In this document: positions 46,646 to 64,000 of the stretch, piece after piece | How the letters are laid out: every line of letters begins with the position of its first letter | Position numbering within the stretch: the first letter of the stretch is position 1 | Source: Escherichia coli | GTDB taxonomy: Bacteria; Pseudomonadota; Gammaproteobacteria; Enterobacterales; Enterobacteriaceae | DNA: 64,000 bases | Reading direction: 5' to 3' (one strand) | Assembly (NCBI RefSeq): GCF_044324875.1 | Contig: NZ_CP172185.1 | The notes under the pieces: generated by a model | The model's input: the letters and a program-made list of their open reading frames with translations, nothing else | Told to the model about the DNA's origin: nothing | Databases searched by the model: none | Position numbers and translations under genes: made by a program

Positions 46646-48039
46646 GCTCATTCAAAACCCATTGCACACAGTTATGCCGGAGCGGGGCTTCTGGCCCATG
46701 TTGTCACCGGAAAGTATGCAGACCATCTGCCGTTATACCGTCAGTCAGAAATATACCGCAGTCAGGACGTGGAGCTGACACCGTTGCTGAACTGCTGGAG
46801 CCGCTGTATGACGTCCTGCGCCAGTATGTGCTGATGCCCGGTAAAGTCCATGCTGATGATATCCCCGTTCCGGTCCAGGAGCCAGGCAGTGGTAAAAACC
46901 GAACGGACAGGCTGTGGGTCTACGTCCGTGATGACCGTAATGCCGGGTCGGAGATGCCCCCGGCGGTCTGGTTCGCGTACAGTCAGGACCGGAAAGGTAT
47001 CCATCCACAGAATCATCTGGCCGGTTACAGCGGTGTGCTTCAGGCCGATACTTACGGTGGTTACCGGGCGTTATACGAATCCGGCAGAATAACGGAAGCC
47101 GCGTGTATGGCCCATGCCCGGAGGAAAATCCACGATTTGCATGCAAGAGCGCCAACTGACATCACCACGGAAGCCCTGCAGCGTATCGGTGAACTGTATG
47201 CCATCGAGGCAGAAGTCCGGGGATGTACAGCAGAACAGCGTCTGGCGGCAAGAAAAGCCAGAGCTGCGCCACTGATGCAGTCACTGTATGACTGGATACA
47301 GACCCAGATGAAAACACTGTCGCGTCACTCGGATACGGTAAAAGCGTTCGCCTACCTGCTGAAACAGTGGGATAGCCTGAACGTGTACTGCAGTAATGGC
47401 TGGGTGGAAATCGACAACAACATCGCAGAGAACGCCTTACGGGGAGTGGACGTAGGCCGGAAAAACTGGTTGTTCGCGGGTTCCGACAGCGGTGGCGAAC
47501 ATGCGGCGGTGTTGTACTCGCTGATCGGCACATGCCGTCTGAACAATGTTGAACCAGAAAAATGGCTGCGTTACGTCATTGAGCATATCCAGGACTGGCC
47601 GACAAACCGGGTACGCGATCTGTTGCCCTGGAAAGTTGATCTGAGCTCTCAGTAAATATCAATACGGTTCTGGCGAACCGCTTACTGTTCAATGGTCCAT
47701 TGGGGTTTTGACATCAATTATCTCCGGTAAGTTAGTGAATGGATATCGGTAATGCTAACTGACTAAAAATCCCTGTGAAGATGACTTCCCCGTAACGACA
47801 TAAACAAAGCGAACACCCGGACGAAATACTATTTCACAAATTGTTAGGGCATCATTTATGAGCAGCGTTTTAATCGAGTAGTCTTTACTTGCATTGCTGC
47901 CTTTATTCTCAGGTGTTCTCATGTCCAAGATGCTCTGTGAGTTCAGCGCTAAGCTCATCTTTAACAGTACACTTCGTAAGCATGGGTGATGCTGCCAACT
48001 TACTGATTTAGTGTATGATGGTGTTTTTGAGGTGCTCCA

Positions 48040-48315
48040 GTGGCTTCTGTTTCTATCAGCTGTCCCTCCTGTTCAGCTACTGACGGGGTGGTGCGTAACG
48101 GCAAAAGCACCGCCGGACATCAGCGCTATCTCTGCTCTCACTGCCGTAAAACATGGCAACTGCAGTTCACTTACACCGCTTCTCAACCCGGTACGCACCA
48201 GAAAATCATTGATATGGCCATGAATGGCGTTGGATGCCGGGCAACTGCCCGCATTATGGGCGTTGGCCTCAACACGATTTTACGTCACTTAAAAAACTCA
48301 GGCCGCAGTCGGTAA
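48040..48315 (+). CDS. insA: IS1 InsA
   Basis: 91 aa, GTG start; matches IS1 InsA as recalled. Confidence 0.9.
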
Positions 48316-48737
48316 CCTCGCGCATACAGCCGGGCAGTGACGTCATCGTCTGCGCGGAAATGGACGAACAGTGGGGCTATGTCGGGGCTAAATCGCGCCA
48401 GCGCTGGCTGTTTTACGCGTATGACAGGCTCCGGAAGACGGTTGTTGCGCACGTATTCGGTGAACGCACTATGGCGACGCTGGGGCGTCTTATGAGCCTG
48501 CTGTCACCCTTTGACGTGGTGATATGGATGACGGATGGCTGGCCACTGTATGAATCCCGCCTGAAGGGAAAGCTGCACGTAATCAGCAAGCGATATACGC
48601 AGCGAATTGAGCGGCATAACCTGAATCTGAGGCAGCACCTGGCACGGCTGGGACGGAAGTCGCTGTCGTTCTCAAAATCGGTGGAGCTGCATGACAAAGT
48701 CATCGGGCATTATCTGAACATAAAACACTATCAATAA
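48234..48737 (+). CDS. insB: IS1 InsB frame (expressed as InsAB' by -1 frameshift)
   Basis: 167 aa ORF. Confidence 0.9.
48291..48297 (+). promoter_or_regulatory. IS1 A6C programmed -1 frameshift site
   Basis: AAAAAAC in the insA/insB overlap. Confidence 0.6.
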
Positions 48738-48925
48738 GTTGGAGTCATTACCGTAAGCATGTATAAAAACAGGTTAAGATCAGATTCGGTTTTAAGGCAA
48801 TTTACCAGTTCGGCAGCAATAGCATTGGATTCTTGTTTATCAATTGCCTGTCTCCACGGTGTAGGGAACATATCAAAAACAGGCAATTACAAAATTTAAA
48901 TTACACTCTCGTCAGAACATAGCCC

Positions 48926-49570
48926 TTAACGAACCGTCCATGCAGGGCTGAAATCCTCTTCCTGAAACAGCTCTGTCAGCCCGCTAATCTGTTTCAGCCT
49001 CAGCACTTCATCCTGGTCCATGCCCAACTCTGTGCCAATACGCTCATCTGTCCAGCCCAGACGTGAGAGGTCCCTGACAATGTCAGACATTGACGTTACC
49101 TGGTGTTTTCCCCTGGCACGGTTATGCCGTATGGTTGCGGCAATACGTGATGCCTGTCCCTTTCTCTCTGGATTAATACAGGCCACTGGCAGCCAGCCCT
49201 TCAGACGTTTTCTCGTATCCGCTTTCCTGCCCAGCAACTGACGATGAAAACCATCCACGACCAGATAATGCTCCTTCTCTTCCGAAACCACCACAGGCTG
49301 CGTGAATCCATCCTGCTCCAGTGAATGTTTAAGCAGTTTTTTTTCACTGGAAGACATGACATTGGGATTGTAATCGTTGGCCACCACCTCATCCGCTTTC
49401 ACCCACAACACACAGTCCACAGGCTCCTGTGCAAAAGGGCTGACCTCATGCAACACCCTGCGCAGATGATTAAGGGCTCGTATGGTCTCTTCTTCAGATC
49501 GTTCCTGACTGAAGTACTGTCGAATCATGTTGCTCAATACTTCCACCTCAGGTGTCACAGAATCCCCCAT
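48926..49570 (-). CDS. ParB-like nuclease-domain protein (IbrB/YbdM-like)
   Basis: 214 aa; VVDGFHR motif; 16-bp overlap with the upstream partner; symbol withheld because homology is from memory. Confidence 0.6.
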   Translation of the reverse strand: MGDSVTPEVEVLSNMIRQYFSQERSEEETIRALNHLRRVLHEVSPFAQEPVDCVLWVKADEVVANDYNPNVMSSSEKKLLKHSLEQDGFTQPVVVSEEKEHYLVVDGFHRQLLGRKADTRKRLKGWLPVACINPERKGQASRIAATIRHNRARGKHQVTSMSDIVRDLSRLGWTDERIGTELGMDQDEVLRLKQISGLTELFQEEDFSPAWTVR

Positions 49571-50781
49571 TCCTTCCTCCTTTCTTTCATACGCTGCAGA
49601 TAACGTTCATAGTGCCGGGGTTTGTTCGGACTGAAGGAGAGGGTCCGACACCAGAAATCATTCTTTATGAGTGTCTTACAGATACGTCGCCAGGACGGGA
49701 TATCCCGGCTCCCCAGGTCATTCTCCTGTTCATCCGGGATGTCATCCGGGAAGCCCCGCGTCTGATACCAGCGCAGGTAGACAGCAATTTTATTACGGTA
49801 ATGTTCTGCCGTTCTTTCCGGCATCACATCCAGCAGGAACATCGCATAGCTACGCCAGGTATGATGAGGTGGCTTCGTGATACGCTTACGCAGGGCAAAA
49901 TAGGCACCGCTCTCATTGGCATAAAGCGCCCCGCTGGCAGCACCCGACACCCGCTCACACATCCTGGCCCAGGTTTCCGGCTCCAGAACATGGTAAAGCC
50001 ACAGTCCCTTACGCTGTTCCGGGCCAAAAGGCTCACAGACCCGCATGTTGCGTAACGGCACGCCGGCACGGTACATCAGGTCATACAGGGGATTGTAGAT
50101 AGCCCGGGTTCTGGCGTTATATATCCATATATCACGGGCTTTCCAGTCATACAACGGATACAAGGTGTAATAAAACCCTTCAGGTGACGCTGTGGTCCAG
50201 GGTTTATCATCTGCATATCTCAGTTTGCGCTGAGACACCAGTCCCATAAAGCGATTGAGCGATTCATCAGCACGAACACCAGTCAGTATTGCCACTCCAC
50301 ACCGGTTACCGGCAAACCAGGAAGAAAATGCCGGAACAAATTCTTCAAACGTCATGGCATACCGATAAAATGGGAAATACGACATATCTGTAATAGCGTC
50401 ATCTGGTGGCTGACGAACCCACTCCACACCTGGTTCCCAGCATATCCATTCCGGCTGAAACTGAGAGACACCGTTTACCGTAGTCAGGGGGAGTGCCACC
50501 CAGTAAAAGGTATCCGTCACATCCCGGTACATTTCCCGCATCTTCTGAACATGTTCAATGGTGCACTGATACTGAGCTTCCCAGTCAATGAATAATACAG
50601 AGAAACGACGTTTCTTCCTGCGAGCCACATCAGCCGCAAGATGGAGCAGCACAGTGGAGTCTTTTCCTCCGGAAAAAGACAAACAGACAGAAGAGAATGT
50701 TTCAAACAACCATTCAATACGGCGAATAGAAGAATGAAATACATCATCCTCTTTTATTATCTTTCGTATAGTTCCTGACAT
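49555..50781 (-). CDS. PAPS-reductase-like (DUF3440) protein (IbrA/YbdN-like)
   Basis: 408 aa; SGGKDS PP-loop motif near the N-terminus; paired with the ParB-like gene. Confidence 0.6.
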   Translation of the reverse strand: MSGTIRKIIKEDDVFHSSIRRIEWLFETFSSVCLSFSGGKDSTVLLHLAADVARRKKRRFSVLFIDWEAQYQCTIEHVQKMREMYRDVTDTFYWVALPLTTVNGVSQFQPEWICWEPGVEWVRQPPDDAITDMSYFPFYRYAMTFEEFVPAFSSWFAGNRCGVAILTGVRADESLNRFMGLVSQRKLRYADDKPWTTASPEGFYYTLYPLYDWKARDIWIYNARTRAIYNPLYDLMYRAGVPLRNMRVCEPFGPEQRKGLWLYHVLEPETWARMCERVSGAASGALYANESGAYFALRKRITKPPHHTWRSYAMFLLDVMPERTAEHYRNKIAVYLRWYQTRGFPDDIPDEQENDLGSRDIPSWRRICKTLIKNDFWCRTLSFSPNKPRHYERYLQRMKERRKEWGIL

Positions 50782-51312
50782 GTTGTATATAACAAAAATT
50801 AAAGAACTAATTAATATTTTGAATTATAATAAATAAACACTTTGAACGACAATGAAACTCTTTTGACTTAAAATTAGTTTGTATTCTTCTTAAAAATCAA
50901 ACCTGTGTCAACGCTGCCCCAATAGATACCACCAATTAAAACCATAGAAAAAACCACTAATACTCTTATTTATTACGGTTATTTAATCTATTGATTAAGG
51001 CTGAATTTAATATAATTTATTGCTGTGTTTTTACAAACATTTAGCATGATTGAACAAGTCATCCCGTTTTTTTCATGAAATGATTGATAGAAAGCTGAAC
51101 AGTACAGAATGATGTATCAGGGGACTCGTCATTTTTCCCAGCCTCAGAGTCTGTCTGAACGCTTTTACCACATTTTCTGTCTGCAGGGCTGCCGCCATTC
51201 TGGTTGTGTTATCAGACGCAGTAGCCGTTCTATCCGTCTGGAGGTGCCGGTAGCTGCCTATGTGGCAAGATTGCGTTGCATTTCGCTAGCGCGTCATCAG
51301 CGCCATGTTTCC

Positions 51313-52253
51313 TTAATATCCATCGCTGACCCTCCCGGGTTCACCTGTGTACGATCCGGAGACATGGTAGACAGGTGTTCGGGGACATGGTGAACACTTT
51401 TTAACATTCTTTGCCATGGTGATCGACTTATTTTTCAGGTCGATCACCCCCACTTTTGTACTGTACCACCAGACTTCATACTGACCGTCTTCCTGCGTCT
51501 CCTTCAGCCCCAGGCGTTCATTTCTGAATGCCTTGCCCGCACTCAGACTGACACCTCTCAGACTCAGTTTACCCCTGATATCCACCTTCCTGACTACCAC
51601 ACCCTCGTCATACTCCGGCGGCTCTACATTGCTCCTGAACTGTCGCGCTGACGGCTGATACCGTGAGGCAGGAACAGCCATATCCAGAGCTTCATGCGGG
51701 CGTTCAAGATTATAGACTGTACGCCAGTGATCGAAGGCGCGCTGCAACTCACCCGCATCTGTAAACCACTTACCCTGCAAAACTTCCGCCTTCAGACTGC
51801 GGTGAAAACGTTCCAGCTTGCCCTGCGTCTGTGGATGGTACGGGCTGGAGTGCCCCACCTTGATACCCTGACGCATCAGCCATAACTCCAGTGCCGTCCA
51901 GGTGCATCCTGTCCGGCAGTCCGTAGTGTTCAAATACGCTGACCAGCTGTTGCTGCACGGTCGTCCGTTGTTCATTGGCGCAGTGAGCCAGACACAGGGA
52001 AAAACGGGAATGATCATCCAGCAGCGTTAACGGATGGCAGCGTCCACCGCCAAAGGGAAAGTGCCCCTTAAAATCCATCTGCCAGAGCTGGTTCGGCGTG
52101 TTCGAAGCGGCCCGTCGCCGGGGCTGCCGCAACCAGACCGGGCAGAAGGCCATTGCGGGCCATCAGGTTATGCACCGTGCTGAAGGCGGGCAGAACAAAC
52201 TCAGAACGTAGTGACATGGTATCTCTCGCTTCCCTGGGCATAAGCGGCTCCAT
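51313..52253 (-). pseudogene. rve-core transposase (IS481/IS3-like), frameshifted
   Basis: Three overlapping ORFs in different frames; ...HSSPYHPQTQGKLERFHRSLK... Confidence 0.5.
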
Positions 52254-53235: not shown

Positions 53236-55505
53236 TGTGTGCCCGGAGTTCAGGGCGAGCATAGACGCTCAAATGAACCACGAGTCTGTCTGGAATATTG
53301 AACCGGTAACTCACGATGAGAAACCCAACAATCCCACCGGGTGTGACGGTGGAGAACCTGAGCGGCAGTGACCTGCGGCATGCCCGCAGGGTGATGTAAC
53401 CCGCTGACAACGGGGATTGAGGCGAGATCACTAAGCCGAGATGATCCTCAAGGTTAAGTACTGAAAGGCTTAAGAATATGAACCCGTTAATCCGCCTCTG
53501 TGGGTTGAAAACGTCACCACGGCCTACGTGATCTGACAGGCCGTGCAGGAGGAACTGGCAGTGATACGTAAGCACTGCCGGTCGAAGGTGTTTTGACATG
53601 TATGCGAAACTCCGGGGCAGCAGCGTCTATCACGCTCGCGTTGCTGACTTCTGCCAACTTGCGGCAAGCAAGGATAAAGAGTGCGACGGGCAGCCTCCTC
53701 AGTATGTCTGAGTCCAGTCAGGCAAACCGGGGAAGGTCAGCGACGGATGTTAAGGGGGCATGGCTCCGATGACGCGCTGGCTGGCGGAGCTTCCGTAGTA
53801 GTCCGCGATGGGGAAAGCCCATTACATGGCGAAGGGAAGCAGTTTGAATGTGTCTGCGACGTAAATTAACTGACCTAACGAGGTGAAGACCTTTGATAAT
53901 CAGCGAAATGCAACGCAAGCTTGCCACATGGGCAGCCACCGATCCGTCCCTACGGATTCAACGGCTGCTGCGTCTGATAACACAACCAGAATGGCTGGCT
54001 GAAGCGGCGCGGATCACGCTTTCATCAAAGGGGGCGAATACCCCCGGTGTTGATGGCGTGAACAAAACAATGCTACAGGCCAGACTGGCTGTTGAGCTGC
54101 AAATCCTCAGGGATGAATTACTCTCAGGCCACTACCAGCCCTTGCCCGCCAGGCGGGTTTACATCCCTAAAAGCAATGGCAAACTGCGACCACTGGGTAT
54201 CCCCGCGTTGCGGGATCGTATTGTTCAGCGGGCCATGCTGATGGCGATGGAGCCGATATGGGAGAGTGATTTTCATACGCTCTCATATGGCTTCCGGCCT
54301 GAGCGCAGTGTCCACCACTCGATCCGCACGGTGAAATTACAGCTCACCGACTGCGGTGAAACCCGGGGACGCTGGGTGATTGAAGGCGACCTGTCCAGTT
54401 ACTTCGACACCGTACATCATCGACTGCTGATGAAGGCTGTACGCCGCAGGATCAGTGACGCACGTTTCATGACTCTGCTGTGGAAAACCATCAAGGCGGG
54501 ACATATCGATGTCGGTCTCTTTCGGGCGGCCAGTGAAGGTGTGCCACAGGGCGGTGTTATATCGCCGCTATTGTCGAACATCATGCTGAATGAGTTCGAT
54601 CAATACCTGCATGAGCGCTACCTGAGCGGGAAAGCAAGAAAAGATCGGTGGTACTGGAATAACAGTATCCAACTGGGCCGAAGTACGGCGGTCAGAGAAA
54701 ACTGGCAGTGGAAACCCGCGGTGGCGTACTGCCGCTATGCCGATGATTTTGTCCTCATCGTCAAAGGCACCAAAGCACAGGCGGAAGCCATCAGGGAGGA
54801 GTGTCGGGGTGTGCTCGAAGGCAGTCTGAAACTCAGGCTGAACATGGATAAGACTAAAATCACCCATGTTAATGACGGCTTTATCTTTCTGGGGCACAGG
54901 ATCATTCGCAAACGCAGTCGTTATGGCGAGATGCAAGTGGTCTCAACGATCCCGCTGGAGAAAGCCAGAAACTTCGCCGCATCGCTGACAGCACTGTTAT
55001 CAGGCAACTACAGTGAAAGCAAAGTCGATATGGCTGAACAACTCAACCGAAAACTGAAAGGCTGGGCCATGTTCTATCAGTTCGTTGATTTTAAGGCCAA
55101 AGTCTTCAGTTATATCGACCGTGTCGTGTTCTGGAAGCTGGCTCACTGGCTGGCCCGCAAATACCGTACAAGTATCGCTTCCCTGATGAGGTGGTGGTGT
55201 AAATCACCGAAACCGGGTCAGAGCAAAACGTGGGTTTTATTTGGTAAAACCAATCACGGCAAGCTCAGCGGCGAAATACTGTACCGGTTGGTGGGGCAAG
55301 GCAAGAAGCTGTTCCGCTGGCGGCTACCCGAAGGTAATCCCTATCTGAGGACGGAAACCAGAAAGACGTATACATCGCGCTTTACAGAAGTGGCAATGGC
55401 GTTCGCCAGCGTTTAAATGGAGAGCCGGATGCGCTGAAAGGTGCATGTCCGGTTCGGGGAGGAGAGGCAGGGAAATAGTCCGACTACGCCCTGCCTCTTA
55501 CTCTA
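53236..55505 (+). mobile_element. Bacterial group II intron with intron-encoded protein (boundaries +/- 3 bp)
   Basis: 5' TGTGTG start; IEP ORF 53893..55416; domain V-like GAGCCGGATGCGCTGAAAGGTGCATGTCCGGTTC at 55422..55455 followed by a domain VI-like stem. Confidence 0.75.
53893..55416 (+). CDS. Group II intron reverse transcriptase/maturase
   Basis: 507 aa, full length; RT motifs including YADD (CRYADDFVLIV) and a C-terminal maturase region. Confidence 0.85.
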   Translation: MIISEMQRKLATWAATDPSLRIQRLLRLITQPEWLAEAARITLSSKGANTPGVDGVNKTMLQARLAVELQILRDELLSGHYQPLPARRVYIPKSNGKLRPLGIPALRDRIVQRAMLMAMEPIWESDFHTLSYGFRPERSVHHSIRTVKLQLTDCGETRGRWVIEGDLSSYFDTVHHRLLMKAVRRRISDARFMTLLWKTIKAGHIDVGLFRAASEGVPQGGVISPLLSNIMLNEFDQYLHERYLSGKARKDRWYWNNSIQLGRSTAVRENWQWKPAVAYCRYADDFVLIVKGTKAQAEAIREECRGVLEGSLKLRLNMDKTKITHVNDGFIFLGHRIIRKRSRYGEMQVVSTIPLEKARNFAASLTALLSGNYSESKVDMAEQLNRKLKGWAMFYQFVDFKAKVFSYIDRVVFWKLAHWLARKYRTSIASLMRWWCKSPKPGQSKTWVLFGKTNHGKLSGEILYRLVGQGKKLFRWRLPEGNPYLRTETRKTYTSRFTEVAMAFASV

Positions 55506-55959: not shown

Positions 55960-56800
<841 letters not shown>

Positions 56801-57322
56801 ATAGTTTCTCCCGTATACCGCTCATGCAACTCCCGCATTAAAATATACTGTTCCTTCCGGATAATTACGTTAAAATATACACCTGCGTGCATCTGTGTCA
56901 GACTCCGTTAGATACCAGCGTACATTGTAAACATGCCGGATGCACGCAATACAATAATCGGTCTTTTCGGAGTTATAGTCACCAGGCTGGCATCCCGTAA
57001 ATATGTATCAGGTAGCAATTCAGGAAGCGAACAAAAGCGCCTGGAGAAGGTTATCTCTGATAATAATTTACATGAAATGTCTCCTTTATTCTTCGCGAAT
57101 AAGGCCTTCAGTGTTCTCCCCTTTTCAGCAATTCTTACCGTAGTAATCACTCCTGCCTGTGTATAACACGAGAATTGCCAGAGTTTAACGTTTCGGTATC
57201 GTTATCCTGCATGATGTTGAACAGAACCGGGCGTGAATTCTGCGCCAGAATTTTCTTTCGAGGAACAGGTGATGCTGCCAACTTACTGATTTAGTGTATG
57301 ATGGTGTTTTTGAGGTGCTCCA

Positions 57323-57598
57323 GTGGCTTCTGTTTCTATCAGCTGTCCCTCCTGTTCAGCTACTGACGGGGTGGTGCGTAACGGCAAAAGCACCGCCGGA
57401 CATCAGCGCTATCTCTGCTCTCACTGCCGTAAAACATGGCAACTGCAGTTCACTTACACCGCTTCTCAACCCGGTACGCACCAGAAAATCATTGATATGG
57501 CCATGAATGGCGTTGGATGCCGGGCAACTGCCCGCATTATGGGCGTTGGCCTCAACACGATTTTACGTCACTTAAAAAACTCAGGCCGCAGTCGGTAA
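57323..57598 (+). CDS. insA: IS1 InsA (copy 2)
   Basis: Identical to copy 1. Confidence 0.9.
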
Positions 57599-58020
57599 CC
57601 TCGCGCATACAGCCGGGCAGTGACGTCATCGTCTGCGCGGAAATGGACGAACAGTGGGGCTATGTCGGGGCTAAATCGCGCCAGCGCTGGCTGTTTTACG
57701 CGTATGACAGGCTCCGGAAGACGGTTGTTGCGCACGTATTCGGTGAACGCACTATGGCGACGCTGGGGCGTCTTATGAGCCTGCTGTCACCCTTTGACGT
57801 GGTGATATGGATGACGGATGGCTGGCCACTGTATGAATCCCGCCTGAAGGGAAAGCTGCACGTAATCAGCAAGCGATATACGCAGCGAATTGAGCGGCAT
57901 AACCTGAATCTGAGGCAGCACCTGGCACGGCTGGGACGGAAGTCGCTGTCGTTCTCAAAATCGGTGGAGCTGCATGACAAAGTCATCGGGCATTATCTGA
58001 ACATAAAACACTATCAATAA
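57517..58020 (+). CDS. insB: IS1 InsB frame (copy 2)
   Basis: Identical to copy 1. Confidence 0.9.
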
Positions 58021-58412
58021 GTTGGAGTCATTACCCGAGGAACATTCCGGGTTATCTGTAGTACAGGAGGAGATTTTCTCCTATTTCAAATAAAATTCAA
58101 TGACAGGTGAATATTTAAATATAAATGCATCGCTTCAACAGAGAAATCGGAATTACGCCCGGAACCAGGCCTGAATGAATAATGGAGGAGGTAAAATAAT
58201 ATTATTGATGAAAATATCAAATTAAGTCCCCCTTCTCCTTCCCCAGCTTAAATATACTTACTTTTTCACTGGATAATATGTTATTGAATTACAAAGTTGA
58301 TCCTGATATACATGATTTCCGGCTCTTGCATCCAGTGATAACTTTATATACTCCTGCAAAGGCGAACTTCGTAAAAGTATACTTTTCTGTTGTAAGCATT
58401 GAGGTATCGAAT

Positions 58413-58637
58413 ATGAGTGAGAATACCGGAAAATCCCATGAAAATAAAATGGTTATTATTGACTGCGGGGAATATGATGAATACCTTCGTAACGCGTGGT
58501 TCCGAGGTTTTCGGGAAGGTTATGATATGGCGATGAAATTTGGATTAGGCTGCCAGCAATGTTATGAAACAGGTGAAAAAATAGCATGCGCAAGAGCTGA
58601 AGAATGCCGTAAAAAGATTAAGGTAATAAAACACTGA
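58413..58637 (+). CDS. Hypothetical small Cys-containing protein (74 aa)
   Basis: Internal Met MSENTGKSHENK with GAGGT RBS; convergent with sodC; no family recognised. Confidence 0.3.
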   Translation: MSENTGKSHENKMVIIDCGEYDEYLRNAWFRGFREGYDMAMKFGLGCQQCYETGEKIACARAEECRKKIKVIKH

Positions 58638-58765
58638 AACGGGCTGTCTGATATTTCTGTGAGCTAAAAAGACACCGTAATACAGGTATCTCACAGTAAC
58701 TGAAAGATATGCACATGCAGCCAGGGAAGATTAAGGGTAAGGGAGGATATCCCTTACCTGATTGA

Positions 58766-59290
58766 TTATGGGATGATACCACAGGCAATTCTTGCACCAC
58801 CGCCACCTAGAGGTTCAGGATGGTCATCATGATTATCACCTCCTGCGTGGAGCATTAGCGAACGGCCATCGAGCTCCTTTAATTCAGATAGTCTTGGCGC
58901 AAGCACCGGGTAGGTTGCTTTTCCGTCATGAGTGACATAAAGCGCAGGGAGATCACCCAGGTGGCCATCAGGAGACCATGGACCGAGATGCTTCCCTGTT
59001 TTTTCCGGGTCAAAGTGACCACCTGCAGATAAAGCAGCGACAGTTTTTCCATCTTTCAGGGCAGGAGCACAACTTGCGTTTTCATGTACATGAAAACCAT
59101 GAATGCCGGCGGGTAAGGAGTGAAGATCAGGGGTGAACAGCAGCCCGTAGGGTGTCTTCTGGATGGTTATTTTACCAATATTTCGCTCTTTTCCGTCACT
59201 ATCAACAAGATTCATTGTTACATCTTTGGTGGCTGCATATCCACAGGATGATGTAGCCAGAATCACAAAGGCAATAAGTTTACGTTTCAT
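58766..59290 (-). CDS. sodC: Periplasmic Cu/Zn superoxide dismutase (island-borne, divergent from chromosomal SodC)
   Basis: 174 aa; signal peptide; metal-ligand motifs HGFHVHE and [12 protein letters not shown]. Confidence 0.85.
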
Positions 59291-59435
59291 AAACCCTCTG
59301 TTAACAGGTTAAAGATTTACTCAATAACTGTTGCGAAATAACAGTCAGCCAGATGATAGCTTATGATAGTTATTGAATGTGACTATCAGTGTAATTAATT
59401 ATGCAAATTAGAAGGAATGTTATGTGTGAAGCGCC

Positions 59436-59594
59436 CCTGTATCCCGCTCATACTGGCTAACCCAGACACGCAGAGTCTGTGGCGTACAGCCAGCATTTGA
59501 GGCAATGGAACAAATTACCCCAATTGTGAATCATACTCATCCTGTTTACCTCTTTCTCAGGGAGTTTAGTCTCCAGGATTCCCGGAGCAGTTCA
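59436..59594 (-). mobile_element. IS629-like right-end remnant with internal deletion
   Basis: Matches the IS629 OrfA-start/right-IR region (...CAGGGAGTTTAGTCTCCAGGATTCCCGG...GTTCA) with about 85 bp missing. Confidence 0.6.
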
Positions 59595-60210
59595 AAGTGC
59601 CCTGTGCTGCTTAAAGTGCCGCTGCATGCCACCACATGGCTGAGCAGCAACAGGTATTGTTGTTCCTTCATGTTGTTCACGCAACCAGCGTAATACCACC
59701 GGCGAGGATGGACTGTCAGTGTGATTACGTTCAGTAATACGTTCATAAAAGGAAGTTCAGAATGCATGAATCTGTTGTCCGTTGATGTTTCCTTCTGTCG
59801 AATTGTGTGTGAAGTGGACAATCAGAAAATGCGGCCAGTGATCCACTGCCTGTTGAATAAAACGCCGGATGTCTCCCGGCTCTGCAAGTAATGCTTCAGT
59901 TTCCTGCACTATTTTATCCCTGTTGAATTTTGTCAAACCGGTGCAGACACGCAGGAAAGTATGCCAGCACTGGTGTAATGCCAGTAACATACAATAAGAA
60001 TGAAATGACGAATCAGTCAGGAAAGGGTGCCCCCATTGGCAACCCATTGACTGAGCAGAGGATACAATCAGGAAGGTTAACGAGAGTATCTCCGACATCA
60101 GGGGCAGGATTGATTTCTACAATACCAGCGCCGGCATTGAGCCTGTACATAGATTTATGTAATTGCCTGATTTTGATATGTTCAATTCAACATCAAATGA
60201 AAGCTAAATT

Positions 60211-60950
60211 ATGGACGACACACAATTGCAGGCTCTGGCTAACGAACTGGCCAAAAATCTCAAAACCCCTGAAGATCTCAGTCAGTTCGATCGCCTGCTC
60301 AAGAAAATAAGTGTTGAGGCAGCTCTCAACGCTGAACTGACTCACCATCTGGGACATGAAAAAAATCAGACCAAATCGGGAACCAACTTCCGTAATGGCT
60401 ATTCCACGAAAACCGTCACCACTACCGACGGGCCGATGGAATTACGTACTCCACCTGATCGTGATGGTTCCTTCGAACCACAACTGGTGAAGAAAAATCA
60501 GACCCGCATTACCGGCATGGACAACCAGATCCTGGCGCTGTATGCCAGAGGGATGACTACCCGCGAAATTACCTCAGCCTTCAAAGAAATGTACGACGCC
60601 GATGTCTCGCCCACGCTGATATCCAAAGTGACCGATGCGGTTAAAGAACAGGTCTCTGAATGGCAAAACCGACCGTTGGATGCACTGTATCCCATTGTTT
60701 ATCTTGACTGTATTGTGGTTAAGGTTCGTCACAGCGGGAGTGTCATTAACAAAGCGGTGTTCCTCGCGCTGGGAATCAATACCGACGGTCAGAAAGAGCT
60801 GCTGGATATGTGGCTGGCCGAAAATGAAGGTGCAAAGTTCTGGCTGAATGTACTGACGGAACTGAAAAATCGCGGCCTGAACGATATCCTTATCGCCTTC
60901 GTGGACGGCCTGAAAGGCTTCCCGGAAGCGATTAATGCCGTCTATCCCAT
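60211..60950 (+). pseudogene. IS256-family (IS1414-like) transposase, 3'-truncated
   Basis: 263 aa ORF matches the N-terminal two-thirds of IS1414-type Tnp; diverges just after AINAVYP. Confidence 0.65.
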
Positions 60951-61181
60951 AAAGCCGGATACGCTCATTTTGGGCGGGATCTCCACAAGCATATGGATAT
61001 GATCTGCACAGCACTCAGCTTCAAGAATCCGTACACTTTTCCACTCACACAGCTTTCTCAAAATAATGCCTGTTGCTTTACGCTTCTCTCTGTAGAACAC
61101 TTTTCTTCGGTATTTTGGCGCAAAAACTATGTGATATTTACAGTTCCATCGGGTATGCGCTAAGCTCTTTTCGTTCCCCAT
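60942..61181 (-). pseudogene. IS200 TnpA N-terminal fragment
   Basis: MGNEKSLAHTRWNCKYHIVFAPKYRR...HIHMLVEIPPKMSVSGFMG; 3' half missing. Confidence 0.7.
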
Positions 61182-61270
61182 TGGGACCCCCTTTTGATTT
61201 CTTGTTTGACACTTGCAGTTGCCAGACCGCAAGGTGTTTTAACAAATCAAAAGGGGTTTTAATAACTGGC

Positions 61271-62417
61271 TCAAAGCTGAAAGCTTTCCGGCCCCCAGCC
61301 TAGCTGGGGGTTTTCTGTGCACAAAAATCCGGAAACGAGTGAGCGTTTCAGGATTCTTAAACAGACCCTGGATCGGTCAACTGCTCCTAAACTGATCGGC
61401 ATTACACCTGTCGGCTGCCGTTTTTTCAGCTCCGTGATCCATGGGCCGGGTTCTTTGGTCAGCAATGCTGCCGCCCTTGCCCCATGGATAAATAATGTCC
61501 GGTGGTAGGTATCCCCACGTTTGCTTATCCCCAGCATGCGAACCTTCCCAGCGGACCCCGTCTGCTTCGGCACCAGACAGACATAAGCGTCAAACTCACG
61601 TCCGGATTTAAATGCTGAGGCCTCGCCCATGGTGGCGACCACCGCCGTAGCGATTAACGGCCCCACACCGGGGATTTCCATTAGGCGCTTACAGTTTTCG
61701 CTCTGCCGTGCCACGCTGTTAATCTGTTTATCAAGGCCATCTATCTGCATGCCCAGCTCACTCAGTCTGTTGTACTGGTATTCAAGCACAGTGATGAGAT
61801 ACGGCGGCAGGTTCGTCTTCATTCGCTCTAGGGCTGTCGGTAGCTTTCTGTCCATCGCTGTCCGATCTTTGTGGAGGATTTCACCAAACTCGAGGAGCGT
61901 GCCAAGGGTATTAATATGCGAGGTTCTGAACTTCACCAGTTGTCTGCGCGAACGGTGCAGGACCAGAACTGACTGCTTCTCTTCCGTTTTAACAGCGATA
62001 TCTTTACTGGGCTGCTGTACCGCCATCCAGATAGCACGCGCATCCATCACATCATTTTTGTTGCCCATGACGAATGCTTTAACGAAGCGAGCTTGCAACA
62101 GCCGAACTTTGTGTCCCAGTTTTTTCCAGTTCCCTCGCCCAATGTTGGGAGCCTCCACAAGCCTCCATACCTATCAGACAGGGTTCCCGGTTGCTGAAGA
62201 ACGTCAGAAAATCCTTGCTACGTAGCTGCTTGTCCACCACTTCGCCCGTGTACTCATTGATGAAGTGAACCTGAATCAGATACTTTGCGATATCAACGCC
62301 AACCGGTGTATATTTCATTTGTGGAGTCGCCAGTCTGAGGGCGCTTTTGCATCCCGTATTGGGCACTATGATGCCGGAAATCTGAGAGGCTCCACAGCAG
62401 ACAATTTTACCCTTCAT
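61271..62417 (-). pseudogene. IS110-family transposase, frameshifted
   Basis: N-terminal ORF 62079..62417 and C-terminal ORF 61271..62158 overlap in different frames. Confidence 0.6.
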
Positions 62418-62556
62418 CCATCACAGTGCACCTCTCTTAACAGGGCAGGATGTGTTCAGTACATTTCTCCTTTTATGGTTACAGTTTATCCATCATGGCG
62501 TAATTGAAGGCTGTCGTGAAGGAGAGGAAGAGCATCTCATCACTTACAAACAAATA

Positions 62557-62577
62557 CATTAATGATAACCATTTGCA
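62557..62577 (+). promoter_or_regulatory. Candidate Fur box upstream of sitA
   Basis: ACATTAATGATAACCATTTGC, Fur-consensus-like. Confidence 0.45.
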
Positions 62578-62597
62578 TTTGTATAGATTATGCTATA

Positions 62598-62619
62598 AAA
62601 CATAGCCGTTGCTATGTTT
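62598..62619 (+). promoter_or_regulatory. MntR operator palindrome upstream of sitA
   Basis: AAACATAGC-cgtt-GCTATGTTT, perfect inverted repeat of MntR-box type. Confidence 0.6.
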
Positions 62620-62651
62620 GTTCTAATTTTGCTCACTATAGGTACTGAATT

Positions 62652-63566
62652 ATGCACTCAATAAAAAAATTAACCATGCTCTTGGGGTTCCTCGCCCTCA
62701 CCTGCTCGATCGCATTTCAGGCGAGTGCAACTGAAAAATTCAAGGTCATTACAACATTTACCATCATCGCAGATATGGCCAAAAACGTGGCTGGAGATGC
62801 TGCAGAAGTCTCATCCATAACCAGGCCCGGTGCAGAAATTCATGAGTATCAGCCTACCCCTGGCGATATTAAACGTGCGCAGGGGGCACAACTGATTCTC
62901 GCCAACGGTATGAATCTGGAATTGTGGTTCCAGCGCTTTTACCAGCATCTCAGTGGTGTTCCAGAAGTGATTGTCTCTTCGGGTGTGACGCCAGTAGGGA
63001 TCACCGAAGGCCCCTACGAGGGAAAACCTAACCCTCATGCCTGGATGTCGCCAGATAATGCTTTGATTTACGTCGATAATATTCGTGATGCGTTGATAAA
63101 ATACGATCCGGCAAATGCAAAAACATACCAACGTAATGCCGATACTTATAAAGCCAAGATTACCCAAACCCTTGCCCCCCTGCGTAAGCAGATTGCTGAA
63201 CTCCCTGAGAATAAAAGATGGATGGTCACCAGTGAAGGGGCTTTTTCTTATCTCGCACGCGATTTGGGGCTAAAAGAGCTTTATCTGTGGCCGATAAATG
63301 CCGATCAACAAGGAACACCCCAGCAGGTACGTAAAGTGGTTGATATAGTGAAGAAAAATAATATCCCAGCGGTATTTAGTGAGAGTACGGTTTCCGATAA
63401 ACCAGCGCGTCAGGTTGCGCGTGAAACCGGCGCACACTACGGCGGTGTGCTCTATGTCGATTCCCTGAGCACAGAAAACGGCCCGGTACCTACGTATATC
63501 GACCTTCTGAAGGTTACTACCAGTACGCTGGTGCAGGGAATTAAAGCCGGGAAAAGGGAGAAGTAA
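62652..63566 (+). CDS. sitA: Mn/Fe ABC transporter periplasmic binding protein SitA
   Basis: 304 aa; signal peptide; TroA/ZnuA-like cluster-9 binding protein; followed by an ATPase gene. Confidence 0.8.
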   Translation: MHSIKKLTMLLGFLALTCSIAFQASATEKFKVITTFTIIADMAKNVAGDAAEVSSITRPGAEIHEYQPTPGDIKRAQGAQLILANGMNLELWFQRFYQHLSGVPEVIVSSGVTPVGITEGPYEGKPNPHAWMSPDNALIYVDNIRDALIKYDPANAKTYQRNADTYKAKITQTLAPLRKQIAELPENKRWMVTSEGAFSYLARDLGLKELYLWPINADQQGTPQQVRKVVDIVKKNNIPAVFSESTVSDKPARQVARETGAHYGGVLYVDSLSTENGPVPTYIDLLKVTTSTLVQGIKAGKREK

Positions 63567-64000
63567 TGATGCAATCTGCGGGTATTGTCGTTAATGGCGT
63601 TACTGTCACCTGGCGTAACGGGCACACAGCACTGCGCGATGCATCCTTCACAGTACCAGGCGGATCTATTGCCGCTCTGGTTGGGGTAAACGGTTCCGGA
63701 AAATCGACGTTATTTAAAGCGATTATGGGATTCGTGCGTCTGACTACCGGAAAGATATCTGTTCTGGGTATTCCCACGCGGCAGGCTCTGCAGAAAAACC
63801 TGATTGCCTACGTCCCGCAGTCAGAAGAAGTGGACTGGTCCTTTCCTGTACTGGTGGAAGATGTGGTGATGATGGGCCGCTATGGGCATATGGGTATGTT
63901 GCGTATAGCCAATAAGAGGGATCGTCAGGTTGTCACCGATGCGCTGGAACGTGTCGATATGGTAGATTTTCGCCATCGACAAATCGGCGAGCTTTCCGGT
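63567..64000 (+). CDS. sitB: Mn/Fe ABC transporter ATP-binding protein SitB (5' part; continues beyond window)
   Basis: Read directly: MMQSAGIVVNGVTVTW...GVNGSGKSTLFKAIMGF...; open to the window end. Confidence 0.75.

Follow-up and report, generated by a model that had tools for sequence, protein, structure and literature searches.

What is the function of two overlapping genes that have stayed intact in a part of the Escherichia coli chromosome where few other reading frames, apart from those of insertion sequences (IS), have done so? This question is raised by a stretch of 64,000 nucleotides from contig NZ_CP172185.1 (RefSeq assembly GCF_044324875.1), referred to here as the window and numbered from its first nucleotide, in which a first-pass annotation had pointed out a gene pair of the IbrAB/YbdNM type. 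Both reading frames lie on the minus strand exactly where that annotation had placed them: the ibrA/ybdN-type gene at 49555..50781 (408 amino acids) and the ibrB/ybdM-type gene at 48926..49570 (214 amino acids), each intact, with an ATG start and zero internal stops. The coupling region between them, read from the sequence (49555..49581, minus strand), comprises a 16-nt overlap and the Shine-Dalgarno sequence of ibrB, a strong AGGAGG (49576-49581) that lies within the 3' end of ibrA, 5 nt ahead of the ATG, which is the usual layout for translational coupling. Judging by its sequence, the window pair is most likely a functional copy of a mobile, phage-derived IbrA-IbrB module. Our preferred but tentative answer, to which we grant somewhat less than an even chance, is that this two-subunit module acts on DNA, with IbrB binding both DNA and a nucleotide and IbrA transferring AMP or otherwise activating a substrate with ATP. 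The observations that carry this answer are the domain folds, the invariant catalytic-type motifs, a pairing of the two genes that is nearly obligate, purifying selection, and a genomic linkage to genes of phage DNA metabolism. The interest lies in the chemistry of a widespread, obligately paired module of phages and their hosts, and thus concerns the family at large, not the window in particular.

IbrA contains the Pfam PAPS_reduct domain, a PP-loop ATP-pyrophosphatase of the phosphoadenosine phosphosulfate (PAPS) reductase family with the motif SGGKDS at residues 37-42, and a C-terminal DUF3440 domain (PF11922; E 8e-25 at residues 240-343 and E 2e-6 at 357-388). IbrB has an N-terminal helical hairpin, a domain of the ParB/sulfiredoxin (Srx) fold with a DGxHR motif, and a C-terminal helix-turn-helix (HTH); its motifs are NDYNPN (65-70), DGFHR (106-110) and RHNRARGKH (148-156), and the IbrA-type gene is adjacent and co-oriented. 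All testable defining features are present, and the two proteins are members of the IbrA/YbdN and IbrB/YbdM families. The identity proposed by the first-pass annotation is borne out by amino acid identities of 92 and 88% to the pair of phage PhiR5_2 and of 58% (across 405 amino acids) and 54%, at full length, to YbdN and YbdM of E. coli K-12, as well as by the name 'IbrB-like' that RefSeq gives to the partner. In E. coli ECCNB12-2, the coding sequence of WP_000017086.1 ('phosphoadenosine phosphosulfate reductase') shows 0 nucleotide differences from ibrA of the window, and that of WP_000502867.1 ('IbrB-like domain-containing protein') shows 1 synonymous difference from ibrB; members of the 90% identity clusters carry generic labels only and never the name 'IbrA'. 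Every NCBIfam match, to CysH, CysD, TilS or Noc, falls far under the curated cut-off. In the case of CysH, the assimilatory PAPS/APS (adenosine phosphosulfate) reductase, the scores are 21-34 bits against cut-offs of 154-254 and there is no invariant cysteine for an ECGLH-type motif, so the RefSeq name is a domain label and not a function. A partition or nucleoid ParB (Spo0J, Noc) was likewise rejected, given 22.6 bits against a cut-off of 315 for Noc, DGFHR in place of AGERR, and no adjacent ParA gene.

Prevalence was determined by megablast with the two genes alone against 5426 complete E. coli genomes, counting as carriers those that match at least 80% of the query. The pair was found in 2027 genomes (~37%), which are 94% of the 2149 with any match; an intact ibrAB is the norm, not the exception, among E. 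coli genomes. Nucleotide identity is 97.4-97.5% in Nissle 1917 and ST131 and 89.5% in O157:H7 EDL933, the exact IbrA and IbrB protein sequences each occur in at least 1000 contigs, and the surrounding island (integrase, PhoX, iha, amiC-like, ibrAB, sodC, sitABCD) is 99.4-99.9% identical in several E. coli strains. The window pair is already known and very common, and as a genome feature it is nothing new. The suggestion that intactness reflects selection stands for the family: against three diverged E. coli or phage copies, the ratio of nonsynonymous to synonymous substitution rates (dN/dS) is 0.06-0.17 for ibrA and 0.06-0.29 for ibrB, which indicates purifying selection. For the lineage of the window in particular, selection cannot be shown, because the allele is common to other strains, unchanged or with only a synonymous change, and intact copies are usual. 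As a family, IbrAB obligately joins an enzyme to a DNA-binding partner and is held under strong purifying selection; one copy (ybdNM) is present in E. coli K-12.

Joint activation of prophage eib genes by ibrA and ibrB is reported to have been found by Sandt, Hopper and Hill (2002, J Bacteriol 184:3640). The window pair has the same two-gene architecture and overlap as IbrA/IbrB of E. coli ECOR-9 and its prophage and O-island paralogues, a likeness that we gauged through the deposited pair of Escherichia phage PhiR5_2 and the O-island copy of EDL933; the window copy lies in an IS-riddled iha-sitABCD island and not in a prophage. With K-12 YbdN/YbdM (b0602/b0601) it is collinear at full length and shares the overlap arrangement and a short promoter block, and at 54-58% identity the two pairs are clearly separate lineages. 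K-12 ybdNM occupies a conserved chromosomal site beside citR/ybdO, a LysR-type regulator gene that flanks K-12-type copies in enterobacteria and whose product represses ybdNM (PMC9068703), whereas the window copy has no adjacent regulator gene.

Genes of the IbrA type are found well beyond E. coli. Among phages, a tblastn search detected them in 224 records (Flavobacterium 90, Mycobacterium 60, Streptococcus 21, Arthrobacter 12, and others), and in a scan of one genome per species the taxa with such genes include Enterobacterales, Clostridia, Bacteroidota, Verrucomicrobia, Alphaproteobacteria, Helicobacter and metagenome-assembled genomes of Asgard archaea. The Asgard contigs (Heimdallarchaeota and Prometheoarchaeum; loci L112 and L116) carry IbrA-like genes of 41-43% identity, which may sit on mobile elements. 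Our survey of neighbourhoods covered 158 loci, of which 80 are viral (IMG/VR) and 78 come from a scan of one genome per species. An IbrB-like gene is adjacent on the same strand in 78 of the 80 viral and 77 of the 78 genome loci (155/158), and all three unpaired loci, two viral and one on a genome contig of 1.5 kb, are cut by a contig end. The two genes occur in either order, A>B or B>A, a freedom that speaks for a functional and not an accidental linkage, and overlaps of 4-16 nt recur in many loci. The commonest third gene encodes an SNF2-type helicase of ~410 amino acids (Pfam SNF2-rel_dom and Helicase_C; PHROG 62), found immediately upstream in 25 viral and 18 genome loci (43/158), and this linkage supports a DNA substrate. 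Further recurrent neighbours are DnaB, a primase-helicase and exonuclease VIII.

Other genes are inserted within the pair or directly flank it. An EctC-like cupin (Pfam Ectoine_synth, E 2e-44) separates the IbrA-like and IbrB-like genes in about nine viral loci and in Pseudoalteromonas phage XCL1123 (L054:7317-7706, L055-L058, L066, L068, L069; L007:5311-5703), and an enzyme of ectoine-synthase type is unexpected inside a phage DNA-metabolism operon. A GNAT-like gene of ~132 amino acids, so labelled from a weak PHROG acetyltransferase match of a viral homologue (E 3e-4) and BLAST links, lies directly beside IbrA in 15 genome loci of Clostridia, Bacteroides and others (L114, L119, L120, L124, L125, L133-L136, L138, L149, L153, L158, L160, L161; e.g. 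L136:8340-8738) and in 2 viral loci (L021:4297-4710, L088:7234-7632). In about eight viral loci of B>A order, the insert between IbrB and IbrA belongs to a family of ~140 amino acids with the conserved motif 'W..SCEH.L.NE.MNRIAW.GQA' and no Pfam or PHROG match (L017:2084-2488, L025:342-767, L026:2012-2437, L027:5585-5983, L029:2721-3143, L034:1470-1901, L043:3080-3520, L080:648-1046). One viral contig has, between IbrA and IbrB, an open reading frame that its translation suggests is peroxiredoxin-like (L060:3868-4617); sulfiredoxin, which repairs peroxiredoxin, has the ParB/Srx fold, as IbrB does. Tailoring-type genes between or beside such a pair are typical of multi-step modification pathways.

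These neighbourhoods bear on the main rival to a DNA-acting enzyme pair, namely transcriptional co-activation or anti-silencing. Modelled on VirB of Shigella and KorB of RK2, it supposes that a ParB-like IbrB gated by nucleoside triphosphate (NTP) ousts H-NS-type silencers from AT-rich prophage promoters, that the DNA is left covalently unchanged, and that IbrA is a mere helper, for example in nucleotide supply or as a structural partner. Such a mechanism fits the sole known phenotype and the AT-rich setting of the genes, but we consider it unlikely, because it does not account for the frequent linkage to genes for SNF2 helicase, DnaB and exonuclease, for the insertion of tailoring enzymes into the pair, or for the invariance of about 20 catalytic-type residues in IbrA from E. 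coli to Clostridia, Bacteroidota and phages. It also leaves unexplained the occurrence of the pair in a group of mycobacteriophages that is presumably non-temperate, in which case the role of the pair would not be limited to prophage regulation.

Among 81 IbrA sequences, R21, SGGKDS 37-42, D66, E68, W121, R170, E173, S174, R177, D212, D217, Y233, R247, Y287 and D375 are invariant, and they cover the PP-loop, GxRxxES..R and P..DW motifs of the PAPS-reductase clade. Not one cysteine is fully conserved across these 81 sequences: the frequency of cysteine per position is 4%-69% except at C378, in the basic DUF3440 tail, which is conserved in 96%, and C249, the possible stand-in for the catalytic cysteine of CysH, is conserved in 48%. 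The final 49 residues of IbrA have a net charge of +8. In IbrB, the invariant residues among 130 sequences are N68, N70, D106, G107, R110, N150 and G154, within the conserved motifs NxYNPN, DGxHR and RHNRARGxH, and the C-terminal HTH conserves G183, M184, E188, R191, Q194 and G197. A pairwise phmmer alignment to ParB of H. pylori (4umk) sets NDYNPN opposite PNPYQPR and DGFHR opposite AGERR, and we take the IbrB motifs to be diverged counterparts of the N-terminal nucleotide-binding boxes of ParB. The conserved HTH of IbrB and the basic tail of IbrA both fit a nucleic-acid substrate.

The absence of an invariant cysteine is of particular importance for the resemblance to Dnd/Ssp-type systems, which the first-pass annotation had noticed and which holds at the level of superfamilies (PP-loop and ParB/Srx folds) and fails at the level of families, conserved cysteines and partner genes. 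If the resemblance extended to function, the pair would carry out DNA phosphorothioation, with IbrA as DndC/SspD, IbrB as DndB, and sulfur delivered by the host IscS. In support of this, DndB-DndC (and SspD, BrxP) likewise join a PP-loop enzyme of the PAPS-reductase superfamily to a ParB-superfamily protein, and PADLOC returns weak matches of IbrA to BrxP (27.4 bits, E 2.4e-7, only at residues 26-96, the PP-loop area, for a profile of length 779) and to DndC (16.3 and 13.1 bits, E 9e-4). These DndC scores are very low, and at E <= 0.01 SspD does not match IbrA and nothing, DndB included, matches IbrB, so membership of DndC/SspD/BrxP or DndB was rejected, as was that of any catalogued defence system. 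Without an invariant cysteine, IbrA has neither the DndC-type cysteine dyad nor an Fe-S ligand set; neither cysteine desulfurase nor DndD/E nor SspB/C lies beside the window pair, nor was any of them recognised in the 158 loci among the frequent clusters of neighbours, not all of which clusters are annotated. A further point in favour is that Vibrio phages counter Dnd restriction with a protein in which a PAPS domain is fused to a Dam methylase (bioRxiv 10.1101/2021.05.05.442762), but its architecture differs from that of IbrA. On this evidence, phosphorothioation is very unlikely. What IbrAB and DndB-DndC probably have in common, by analogy, is the principle of ATP-dependent activation on DNA; IbrA differs from DndC, SspD and BrxP by its DUF3440 domain, which is not reported for them. 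Among other comparisons, the DpdA-DpdB system of 7-deazaguanine DNA modification has a partner enzyme of a different superfamily (tRNA-guanine transglycosylase and not PP-loop), and, in comparison with ParB-like proteins, a group that includes the regulators KorB and VirB, IbrB has DGFHR at the place of the ParB motif GERR.

We predicted the structures of IbrA and IbrB, each as a monomer. The nearest solved folds of IbrA are those of small-molecule enzymes, namely flavin adenine dinucleotide (FAD) synthase, CysD and APS reductase; IbrB resembles in fold a set of proteins that bind NTP (KorB, PadC, sulfiredoxin, SbnI and serine kinase), and its C-terminal part resembles DNA-binding HTH proteins, VirB and KorB among them. 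A PDB sequence search found no close solved relative, the best matches being FAD synthase (E 1e-4) and ParB 4umk (E 0.002). These folds could also suit a pair of enzymes that works off DNA on small molecules or nucleotides, in which IbrA would adenylate a metabolite bearing a phosphate, sulfate or carboxyl group, IbrB would serve as a kinase or NTPase of ParB/Srx fold, comparable to SbnI and free serine kinase, and a signal or a modified nucleotide could result. The nearest folds of IbrA, the likeness of IbrB to those kinases and to ATP-dependent sulfiredoxin, the EctC-like and GNAT genes, which are classic small-molecule enzymes, and the peroxiredoxin found between the two genes in one locus all speak for it. 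We nevertheless judge it improbable, given that IbrB retains its conserved C-terminal HTH, that the tail of IbrA is basic, and that the neighbours are SNF2 helicase and replication genes.

In the mechanism that we favour, in which the module acts on DNA, the translationally coupled IbrA and IbrB would work as one complex. IbrB would bind DNA through its C-terminal HTH, hold a nucleotide in its ParB/Srx pocket, and recruit or gate IbrA. As a PP-loop ATP pyrophosphatase of the clade that transfers AMP to an oxygen of phosphate or sulfate (CysD, FAD synthase, DndC), IbrA would then adenylate a group carried by DNA or by a nucleotide bound to it and so activate that group for substitution; the SNF2 translocase and the tailoring enzymes would be extras that many phages supply. 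In E. coli, the outcome would be the de-repression of silenced prophage genes, if the eib activation reported in 2002 is produced by this chemistry. A more specific version of the proposal, possible though on the whole doubtful, is that IbrAB forms the minimal core of a phage-borne DNA-marking system, that is, a ParB-like loader with a PP-loop adenylyltransferase, often joined by SNF2 and tailoring enzymes, whose covalent mark would be neither a phosphorothioate nor a known base modification. Through such a mark, phage DNA would be protected or silencing relieved, and the reported activation of eib would thereby be explained. If either DNA marking or anti-silencing is true, the result would bear on how pathogenic E. 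coli control prophage genes, such as those for eib adhesins and those of O-islands, and on the means by which phages escape the defences of their hosts. For experiments, handles are offered by the nearly universal pairing, by the SNF2 helicase that recurs upstream, by the inserted EctC-like and GNAT genes, and by the lack of conserved cysteines.

It is important to consider the observations that weigh against an enzymatic module acting on DNA. As the first-pass annotation had supposed, no biochemical function was found in a full-text literature search, which returned no biochemical study of IbrA, IbrB, YbdN, YbdM or DUF3440. The sole phenotype known so far concerns transcription, for which an HTH protein could account by itself. 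The DUF3440 domain has no match among solved folds, the ParB_N profile match of IbrB is weak (E 0.004), and tests of IbrB-family representatives and of viral IbrB-like proteins, at lengths of at least 280 amino acids, found no IbrA-IbrB fusion. The E. coli copies lack the SNF2 helicase and the tailoring genes, so the two-gene enterobacterial version may act more simply. Finally, in a few phages the pair is adjoined by a terminase or portal gene and not by replication genes. A DNA-packaging accessory, made up of a ParB-like recognition protein of small-terminase type and its partner and left over without a current role in the E. coli island, is still the least credible of the explanations considered: the annotated frequent neighbour clusters belong to replication and recombination, not to terminase or portal; the pair is kept, with dN/dS near 0.1, at chromosomal sites outside prophages (K-12 ybdNM and the cobU-side islet of Nissle); and packaging gives no reason for a conserved PP-loop enzyme.

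The long IbrB forms (at least 280 amino acids) have tandem IbrB duplications, as in P0151, P0181 and P0187, C-terminal extensions, or insertions of ~200-260 amino acids. In P0172, P0175, P0249, P0260 and P0286 these insertions fall near positions 88-100 of the hidden Markov model, just before DGxHR, and from their sequence they may be inteins or inserted domains.

The leader of ibrA is the AT-rich part of the locus. The first-pass annotation had described about 330 bp of such DNA upstream, and by composition the region comprises 329 bp (50782..51110, minus strand) with 26.1% GC, compared with 50-51% in ibrA and ibrB and 48.9% in the whole window. It contains two sigma-70-like matches, TTGACA-17-AAGAAT (50911-50883) and TTGTCG-18-TATAAT (50852-50823), among 6 sites found by a promoter scan against 4.0 +/- 2.0 expected, a number that is not significant alone. 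Around the second -10 element (50823-50852), the block 'AGTGTTTA(T/C)T..TTATAATT' is common to the promoter region of K-12 ybdN and may represent a shared operator or promoter core. Beyond this short block, the leader aligns neither with that of K-12 ybdN nor with those of Nissle, EDL933 or PhiR5_2; a repeat search of it gave only AT-rich low-complexity matches, and an Rfam scan of 48600-51400 gave no match at E <= 1. The xenogeneic silencing of the H-NS type that the first-pass annotation had suggested for the leader is plausible by analogy, since citR/ybdO, the neighbour of K-12 ybdNM, is stated to be H-NS regulated (PMC9068703).

With respect to the genomic setting, the first-pass annotation was right that few frames other than those of ISs are intact. 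Over 32 kb of the matching RefSeq island, these are amiC, ibrAB, a small hypothetical gene, sodC and sitABCD, and the other features are IS genes, IS fragments, pseudogenes and a disrupted group II intron gene. Alignment to the ECCNB12-2 island shows that ~185 bp of non-IS DNA follow ibrB on its 3' side (48738..48925, minus strand) and are ended by the terminus of an IS1 copy at 47970-48737 (left end approximate; insA/insB open reading frames at 48040-48737). The ECCNB12-2 island is identical up to this terminal sequence and has no IS1 at the junction, the closest features upstream of which are, in that strain, an IS66-family element and a transposase pseudogene; the absence of IS1 from an otherwise near-identical island indicates a recent, lineage-specific insertion. 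A terminator scan found no intrinsic terminator after ibrB. In O157:H7 EDL933, a gene for a PerC-family transcriptional regulator directly follows ibrAB (L004:8649-8918), and the remnant downstream of the window pair is unrelated to it. On the other side, IS3-family remnants start shortly upstream of the AT-rich leader. The wider window (1-48000 and 56000-64000) represents a chromosomal island, heavily broken up by copies and fragments of IS1, IS3, IS21/IS100, IS66 and IS110, that encodes a tyrosine integrase, PhoX, the adhesin/siderophore receptor iha and an amidase of amiC type along with sodC and sitABCD. It also includes, at 53893-55416 on the plus strand, a stop-free open reading frame of 507 amino acids for a group II intron reverse transcriptase/maturase, whereas its ECCNB12-2 counterpart, ltrA, carries an internal stop and is annotated as a pseudogene.

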